Origin: a virus
Lineage: Duplodnaviria; Heunggongvirae; Uroviricota; Caudoviricetes
Direction: 5' to 3' (one strand)
DNA length: 8,473 nucleotides
IMG/VR virus record: IMGVR_UViG_2663762857_000030
Span: 1-8,473 of that record
Shown one piece after another: positions 6,875 through 7,309 of this stretch (its first letter is position 1; every line of letters begins with the position of its first letter). The position numbers and the translations under genes were made by a program. The notes under the pieces were generated by a model. The model saw nothing but the letters and a program-made list of their open reading frames with translations. It was not told the origin of the DNA and searched no databases.

Positions 6875-7309
6875 ATGATTGATAAAGCTTGTTTTGTAAG
6901 TCAGCAGGAAATAGCTGAACATTTCAAGGTTAACAGAACCACTATTCGCGCATGGACCAAACAGGGGATGCCGTATCTTAATGCGGATCGCGGAAAGTCT
7001 GGCGGTTATCACATCGGGCATACATTGCTTTGGTCTTCAGGTAAAAGCCGTCTTGAGACCATCAGATATCACGTAGAAACCAGTGCGCTGGAAAAAATTA
7101 TGTTTGCCAGGCTGCTTTCATCTGAGCGTGACGAGTACTCCAGTGAAGAAACAGAACATCGATTTGATGAAGGTTTGCAGATTTACGGCTATTCACCGGA
7201 AGATGTGAGCAAGGCACGAAATAAAATGGCTGGCTTTCTGGCTGGGTGGCGTCATGCCGTAAGCGTTCGCCGTGCCAGCATGGAGCAATCAGCCGATACA
7301 GAACAGTAA
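6875..7309 (+). CDS. Small-terminase-like protein (144 aa): lambda Nu1-type N-terminal DNA-binding domain, unrelated C-terminus
   Basis: N-terminal ~50 aa align by eye with lambda Nu1 (VSQQEIAEHF--NRTTIRAWTKQGMPYL-ADRGKSG versus VNKKQLADIFGASIRTIQNWQEQGMPVLRGGGKGN). The C-terminal half is not recognisably Nu1-like. The gene sits ~90 bp downstream of cos A, as Nu1 sits downstream of lambda cos. Confidence 0.7.
   Translation: MIDKACFVSQQEIAEHFKVNRTTIRAWTKQGMPYLNADRGKSGGYHIGHTLLWSSGKSRLETIRYHVETSALEKIMFARLLSSERDEYSSEETEHRFDEGLQIYGYSPEDVSKARNKMAGFLAGWRHAVSVRRASMEQSADTEQ

Follow-up and report, generated by a model that had tools for sequence, protein, structure and literature searches.

The rppA gene of an EcCICFT073-type PICI and the two cos sites that flank it

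The open reading frame at 6875-7309 of the window, the whole 8,473-nt stretch of viral DNA that was analysed (IMG/VR record IMGVR_UViG_2663762857_000030), is almost certainly rppA (for 'redirecting phage packaging'), carried by a phage-inducible chromosomal island (PICI) of the EcCICFT073 type, and works via Rpp-TerS packaging redirection. The encoded protein belongs to the Rpp family and is in practice RppA itself, and no feature of the sequence contradicts this reading. The function of RppA as a satellite packaging hijacker is already known and is not a new finding. The identification is of value mainly for annotation, and it shows the window to be a PICI of the cos type with interference against lambda-like phages. 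Of the results below, only the match between the second cos site of the island, cos2, and the cos of a group of phages goes beyond the literature searched.

Identity of the gene and its island

The coding sequence (Table 1) is exactly as it had been described in an earlier note made from the sequence alone, with 144 codons on the plus strand and an ATG start, and a Shine-Dalgarno-like TAAGGT is found 8 nt 5' of the ATG. The same CDS is annotated by RefSeq at rppA in Escherichia coli CFT073 and JNE120442. The window protein is identical at 143 of 144 residues to c1503 (C_RS07025) of CFT073, the sole substitution being T62 in the window for A62 in CFT073, at a position that is variable across the family in an alignment of 16 homologues. 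It is identical over its full length (144/144) to WP_044694491.1, a RefSeq 'hypothetical protein' of strain JNE120442. The likeness extends to the DNA: over the 901 nt that hold rppA and cos, identity is 99.3% with CFT073 and 99.7% with JNE120442. Fillol-Salom et al. (Mol Cell 2019, PMC6739421) gave the name RppA to the 144-residue product of c1503, a gene of the CFT073 island EcCICFT073. The RppA sequence printed in Fig. S1 of that paper starts MIDKACFVSQQEIAEHFKVN, and the window protein is identical over the part shown; the same figure prints cos1 running into the gene start ATG ATT GAT AAA.

A sequence search of the PDB returned a single strong match, RppC (6HLK, and also in 6HN7 with lambda TerS). 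RppA residues 2-125 aligned with RppC in 6HLK with an E value of 5e-31 in a single-sequence search, and the Rpp family profile aligned with it over residues 1-141 with an E value of 6e-43. 6HLK is the crystal structure of RppC, 'redirecting phage packaging protein C', of EcCIEC2733.1, and 6HN7 is its complex with lambda TerS 1-98. The kinship with the packaging-redirecting proteins of cos-type E. coli PICIs, which the earlier note had raised without being able to confirm it, is thus established by the full-length match to RppC and the near-identity to RppA. Its proposal of a satellite factor that pairs with helper Nu1 and diverts the terminase to its own cos was likewise correct, given the 143 of 144 residues in common with a protein for which this mechanism has been shown (PMC6739421). 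No Rpp family model is present in Pfam or NCBIfam, where RppA gave only sub-threshold generic HTH matches, and the rppA product is a 'hypothetical protein' in RefSeq in every genome listed. This label is an annotation gap, the function and the structure of a homologue having been available since 2019.

Expressed alone, c1503 keeps lambda and phi80, though not HK97, from forming plaques, and phage replication and lysis are unaffected (PMC6739421). Phage escape mutations map to TerS (V3I, A55V, E65K and others), and the TerS escape mutants lose island transfer (PMC6739421), which is also abolished by deletion of phi80 terS (PMC6092414). Two-hybrid assays showed that RppA forms homodimers and binds TerS; in pull-downs, RppC came down with TerS(1-98), and in the RppC-TerS crystal the Rpp winged-helix domain sits where the second TerS DNA-binding domain would be (PMC6739421). 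Island transfer is lowered by deletion of rppA and by the substitutions L51D or F121R, and the double substitution R21A/T22A retains interference but loses preferential packaging of the island (PMC6739421). The RppA experiments were done on the CFT073 protein, one residue off the window RppA (A62 versus T62). R21, T22, L51 and F121, the residues mutated in that study, serve recognition of cos1 (R21/T22), contact with TerS (L51) and the homodimer (F121), and all four are present in the window protein. Among the 16 homologues, which were drawn from Escherichia, Klebsiella, Phytobacter and Salmonella, R21, T22 and F121 are invariant, and position 51 is occupied by L, F or M.

The island includes genes for an integrase, an AlpA-type regulator, a primase (D5_N/DUF5906), an SSB and PerC, followed by the E-like and D-like head genes and then rppA. 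In islands of E. coli and Klebsiella, the two head genes are conserved beside rpp. Gram-negative PICIs often have capsid genes, which are dispensable for transfer (PMC10111431), and the 2018 paper describes the island as being without capsid morphogenesis genes (PMC6092414). In a Klebsiella island, the ORF in place of the 137-aa ORF carries a precomputed Phage_AlpA (PF05930) match.

Table 1. Features of the island around rppA (window coordinates; bp numbers are counted from the cohesive end of the respective cos).
Feature	Position	Strand	Remarks
Lambda E-like major capsid protein gene	4884-5939	+	PF03864, E 7e-50
D-like head decoration protein gene	5951-6286	+	PF02924, E 1e-17
Conserved island ORF, 137 aa	6299-6712	+	No Pfam family
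Intrinsic terminator	6716-6741	+	9-bp stem, GAAA loop, T7; fold -16 kcal/mol, z = -3.9
cosQ of cos1	6743-6756	+	CGGGTCCTTTCCGG, identical to lambda cosQ; labelled in Fig. S1A of PMC6739421
cosN cohesive end of cos1	6774-6785	+	GGGCGGCGACCT, identical to lambda left end
cosB of cos1	6786-6874	+	Island-specific packaging specificity region
Conserved core of cos1 cosB, ACACCACCACCAC	6826-6838 (bp 53-65)	+	Lambda R3 position
rppA CDS	6875-7309	+	144 aa plus stop, ATG start
RppA winged-helix DNA-binding domain (by homology)	6893-7048 (residues about 7-58)	+	Homology
RppA helical dimerisation and TerS-contact domain (by homology)	7067-7306 (residues about 65-144)	+	Homology
cos2, complete phage-type cos, inverted	7378-7556	-	Labelled cos2 in Fig. 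S1A of PMC6739421
R-like ATGTCCGGTT elements of cos2	7465-7474 (bp 51-60), 7408-7417 (bp 108-117), 7378-7387 (bp 138-147)	-	
Cohesive end of cos2	7513-7524	-	
cosQ of cos2	7542-7555	-	
Conserved island ORF, 93 aa	7589-7870	+	No Pfam family
tqsA (AI-2 transporter), 5' part	8327-8473	-	Right end of the window; L005 10631-10774

The two cos sites

The cos1 and cos2 sites form an inverted repeat that brackets rppA, with 78-nt arms at 6743-6820 and 7478-7555 that are 81% complementary. The cohesive-end sequence GGGCGGCGACCT occurs in two exact copies in the window, at 6774-6785 (+) and 7513-7524 (-), with 0.01 expected by chance. With bp 1 of cos1 at 6774, the rppA ATG falls at bp 102, and bp 102 is also where Murialdo and Feiss locate the start codon of rpp in PICI-C.

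In published plasmid transfer assays, RppA lowered the transfer of plasmids with a phage cos and raised that of plasmids with the island cos1; in cosB swaps, only the cosB of cos1 responded to RppA, and a phi80 chimera with this cosB became RppA-dependent (PMC6739421). The primers for the phi80 chimera, listed in the supplement of that paper, map to window positions 6811-6836 and 6934-6955, and the experimentally RppA-responsive fragment therefore corresponds to 6811-6955. Within the cosB of cos1, only the cosN-adjacent stretch 6787-6825 matches lambda-like phages, and the rest of the interval 6786-6874 had no match in the phage collection. The block CACCACCAC, the core of ACACCACCACCAC, is invariant and is followed by TGATT in four PICIs (E. 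coli RppA type, E. coli RppB type, Klebsiella and Salmonella), and it is kept even in the RppB-type island, the cohesive-end sequence of which differs. The conserved ACACCACCACCAC element had no match in phages. On sequence grounds, ACACCACCACCAC is the most likely RppA recognition element, to which we infer that the protein binds, and conservation of this core supports R3-PICI as proposed by Murialdo and Feiss (PMC9026076). In the RppB-type island (L006), the core is at about 2448-2462, and its equivalents are in L009 and L012.

The intrinsic terminator closes the upstream 137-aa ORF and lies immediately before cosQ; it was missed by a consensus scan and confirmed by folding. Given that this strong terminator ends the upstream gene, rppA is probably transcribed from a promoter of its own that lies within cos1. 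A promoter-like site, GTGACA-16-AATATT at 6823-6850, overlaps the conserved ACCACCACC element. A scan of 6600-7650 found three promoter-like sites against 1.4 expected, a number not above chance.

Transfer of the island requires cos1 and not cos2 (PMC6739421, PMC6092414). As deletion of cos2 raises island transfer by lambda and phi80 (PMC6092414), cos2 is a cost with these helpers. The 2018 and 2019 papers report that no phage cosB is identifiable in the island (PMC6092414, PMC6739421), and according to a 2022 review, repeated R sequences are missing from the rppA-adjacent cos of PICI-A. In contrast to those papers, cos2 was found here to have three R-like repeats in lambda geometry (Table 1; in the lambda sequence, R3 is at 49-64 and R2 at 109-124) and to match a very common phage cos. 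Read on the plus strand, ATGTCCGGTT is present as two direct copies (7378-7387 and 7408-7417) and one inverted copy (7465-7474), and a search that allowed up to one mismatch gave three matches against 0.52 expected.

The match to a phage cos covers the whole of cos2 (7378-7556), with 93.3% identity across 179 nt to phages PhiR12_1, _2, _2_star, _4 and _5. In PhiR12_1 (PV340549.1), the matching block has Rz on one side and the Nu1/A terminase genes of the phage itself on the other and is therefore a genuine phage cos. All three ATGTCCGGTT repeats are conserved in register in the PhiR12_1 cos, immediately upstream of the phage terS, and the homology between island and phage ends exactly after the last ATGTCCGGTT repeat, on the side towards the rppA 3' end. 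In the literature searched, we found the match between cos2 and a real phage cos mentioned nowhere; EcCICFT073 is named there together with cos1 and cos2 only in the 2018 and 2019 Penadés papers, and a literature search on the PhiR12 phages returned nothing relevant. As a precedent, a helper-embedded PICI has a 258-bp segment of the cos region in common with its helper prophage (PMC10111431).

Of the candidate binding sites for the protein raised in the earlier note, the interval 6786-6874 does hold the RppA-responsive DNA, whereas the ATGTCCGGTT repeats belong to the cosB of cos2 and were unresponsive in the published swaps. The reading in which RppA binds the repeats at 7378-7474 and acts through the downstream cos draws on the presence of three exact copies near rppA in a layout like R3-R2-R1, and on a marginal effect of RppA on cos2 plasmids (p = 0.04) in the published assay (PMC6739421). 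It is nevertheless improbable. With RppA present, transfer in the swaps was limited to plasmids that had the cosB of cos1, and island transfer needs cos1, not cos2. Moreover, all three repeats recur with their spacing unchanged in the genuine PhiR12_1 cos, beside that phage's own terS, and the Rpp islands of Klebsiella and Salmonella lack ATGTCCGGTT but keep ACCACCACC upstream of rpp. The ATGTCCGGTT repeats stand outside the RppA mechanism, as R elements that came with a captured cosB of the phage type.

The TerS of the PhiR12 phages and lambda Nu1 are alike only in the C-terminal half (residues 73-164, 46% identity). Close matches to the N-terminal domain of PhiR12 TerS were found only in PhiR12 phages, and Aeromonas phages align with the full-length protein at 32-35% identity. 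The N-terminal divergence would fit a different cosB specificity. RppA as a copy of the DNA-binding domain of PhiR12 TerS was considered and rejected, the similarity being negligible (E 0.05). Of 5426 complete E. coli genomes, 1149 have the PhiR12 cosB-terS segment at a coverage of at least 80%. As regards co-residence of the island with a PhiR12-type prophage, extra matching places were present in three of the best 15 genomes, and in neither CFT073 nor JNE120442; hence there is no sign that co-residence is obligatory.

The presence of an intact and complete copy of a PhiR12-type cos suggests that cos2 serves a second class of helper. We therefore put forward, tentatively and at somewhat less than even weight, that the island may carry two piracy devices back to back, with cos1 and RppA re-programming TerS of the lambda, phi80 and 21 types, and cos2 serving an unmodified PhiR12-type terminase, which would package the island directly and without RppA. 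If this is true, it would explain why cos2 is retained despite the raised transfer by lambda and phi80 upon its deletion, and it would extend the helper range to prophages carried by about one complete E. coli genome in five. Were cos2 functional with PhiR12-type phages, the helper range and the spread of the pathogenicity island would be broader than in the lambda/phi80 model.

An RppB-type E. coli PICI (L006) also has two inverted cos copies around rpp, at 2367-2500 and 2930-3160. Both have a GGGTACGTGTACGCGCAAAAACGCG-like cohesive-end region, unlike lambda, and since they carry the same non-lambda sequence the two cosN copies would have changed together. The inverted cos2 of this island carries the TTCCGGTT-like elements ATTTCCGGTT and AACCGGAAGT. 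A phage search with it gave only a 70-nt match in the cosQ/cosN region at 80% identity and no convincing phage counterpart, and the finding that cos2 is a copy of a phage cos covers the RppA-type island only. On a contig of Salmonella enterica (AAOBIJ010000011.1; L012 758-1608), two rpp-like genes stand in tandem after one cos. The first encodes an RppC-like protein of 142 aa (match to 6hlk, E 6e-19), and the product of the second (P0012) is 59% identical to RppA.

The RppA protein and the redirection of packaging

In a comparison with lambda Nu1, BLASTP aligned RppA residues 8-71 with Nu1 residues 3-55 at 30% identity (pairwise E 2e-6), and hhalign, run with the 16-sequence Rpp alignment, aligned residues 8-58 with 3-54 at 88.5% probability. 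PHROG 57 (terminase small subunit) matched RppA residues 7-46 with an E value of 4e-8. The Pfam family Phage_Nu1 (PF07471) matched residues 8-40 only and scored 14.6 bits against a cutoff of 30 bits. No counterpart of the C-terminal half of Nu1, which is involved in oligomerisation and in binding of gpA (TerL), was found in RppA, as the BLASTP alignment stops at residue 71 and that of hhalign at 58. RppA is 37 residues shorter than Nu1 (144 versus 181). As judged from these alignments, RppA does resemble Nu1, though weakly and over the DNA-binding domain only. The description in the earlier note of a Nu1-like N-terminal DNA-binding region joined to a C-terminal half unlike Nu1 thus holds in both parts, though the likeness in the first is weak, and nothing beyond about residue 60 aligns by either method.

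Since RppA is below the Pfam threshold, lacks the C-terminal TerL-binding half and has no terL adjacent to it, it is not a member of the Nu1 family but works like a mimic of the TerS DNA-binding domain. It is very unlikely to be a genuine small terminase in shortened form, with direct binding to TerL and no need of the helper TerS. The N-terminal domain is indeed TerS-like, and rppA occupies the exact position of terS relative to cos. Against this, RppA has no similarity to the TerL-binding region of Nu1 and a sub-threshold Phage_Nu1 score, and the island is without terL, rppA being followed by cos2, the 93-aa ORF without a family match and the island end. In addition, transfer of the island does not withstand deletion of phi80 terS (PMC6092414) or the escape mutations in TerS (PMC6739421). 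An ordinary HTH regulator of the MerR, BldC or excisionase type with no packaging role is just as hard to sustain: weak sub-threshold matches to many HTH families, including MerR_1, HTH_17 and BldC, the ranking of MerR-family structures after RppC in Foldseek, without significance, and the overlap of ACCACCACC with the promoter-like site at 6823-6850, which may point to autoregulation as an added role, speak for it, but the HTH matches are below the curated cutoffs and only about 25 residues long, the full-length homology is to RppC, the packaging role was shown genetically for the near-identical CFT073 protein, and the promoter-like sites are not above chance.

Six helices were predicted in RppA (residues 10-17, 21-29, 48-62, 71-84, 91-103 and 108-143), and they agree with the positions described for RppC. 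An AlphaFold2 model built from the 16-sequence alignment was of low confidence, with a mean pLDDT of 56 and a pTM of 0.46, and the beta-hairpin was missing. When the PDB was searched by Foldseek with this poor model, 6hlk and 6hn7_A were at the top, with a TM score of 0.34 and an rmsd of 14 Å. Of the checks proposed earlier for residues 1-60, the hhalign comparison came out in favour of a Nu1-like domain at sequence level, and the structure prediction was of poor quality. The predicted winged-helix fold of RppA rests on homology to the crystal structure 6HLK.

In the mechanism established by experiment for the CFT073 protein (PMC6739421), RppA homodimers form through the C-terminal helices. 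The N-terminal winged-helix domain of RppA replaces one of the TerS DNA-binding domains to give an Rpp-TerS heterocomplex with TerS of the lambda or phi80 type. Such a complex no longer recognises the phage cosB, by which phage packaging is blocked, and it recognises the island cosB in cos1, directly upstream of rppA. The helper TerL cuts the lambda-identical cosN of cos1, leading to packaging of the island. The window protein would act likewise. The recognition helix of RppA (R21, T22, R25 and K29) may read ACACCACCACCAC at bp 53-65 of cos1, and TerS would be kept in the complex as Rpp lacks the TerL-binding C-terminus (PMC9026076).

Comparison with known systems

RppA of EcCICFT073 has the same length as the window protein, with the ATG 102 bp after the cos1 cohesive end, the same cos1 and cos2 flanks and the same gene order. 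The islands differ in their site. The copy in the window sits within tqsA (ydgG), as does that of JNE120442, in which tqsA is annotated as a truncated pseudogene, and not at the CFT073 site beside phoQ.

RppC of EcCIEC2733.1 has full-length homology to RppA and shares the DNA-contact residues R21, T22, R25 and K29, and also L51. However, the two proteins are only 43.65% identical according to PMC6739421, RppC is 9 residues longer, and the residues of the C-terminal dimer interface are poorly conserved. RppA and RppC do not heterodimerise, and TerS is bound more tightly by RppC (PMC6739421).

Lambda gpNu1 (PDB 1J9I) has in common with RppA the winged-helix DNA-binding domain, at about 27-30% identity, and both genes are located just downstream of cosQ-cosN-cosB. 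RppA differs from gpNu1 in its DNA specificity, and it does not act as a terminase subunit but takes the place of one DNA-binding domain of TerS within a heterocomplex. The cos of PhiR12_1 and the island cos2 have cosQ, the cohesive end and the three ATGTCCGGTT elements at matching distances, but the phage cos leads into terS and terL, whereas cos2 is inverted in the island.
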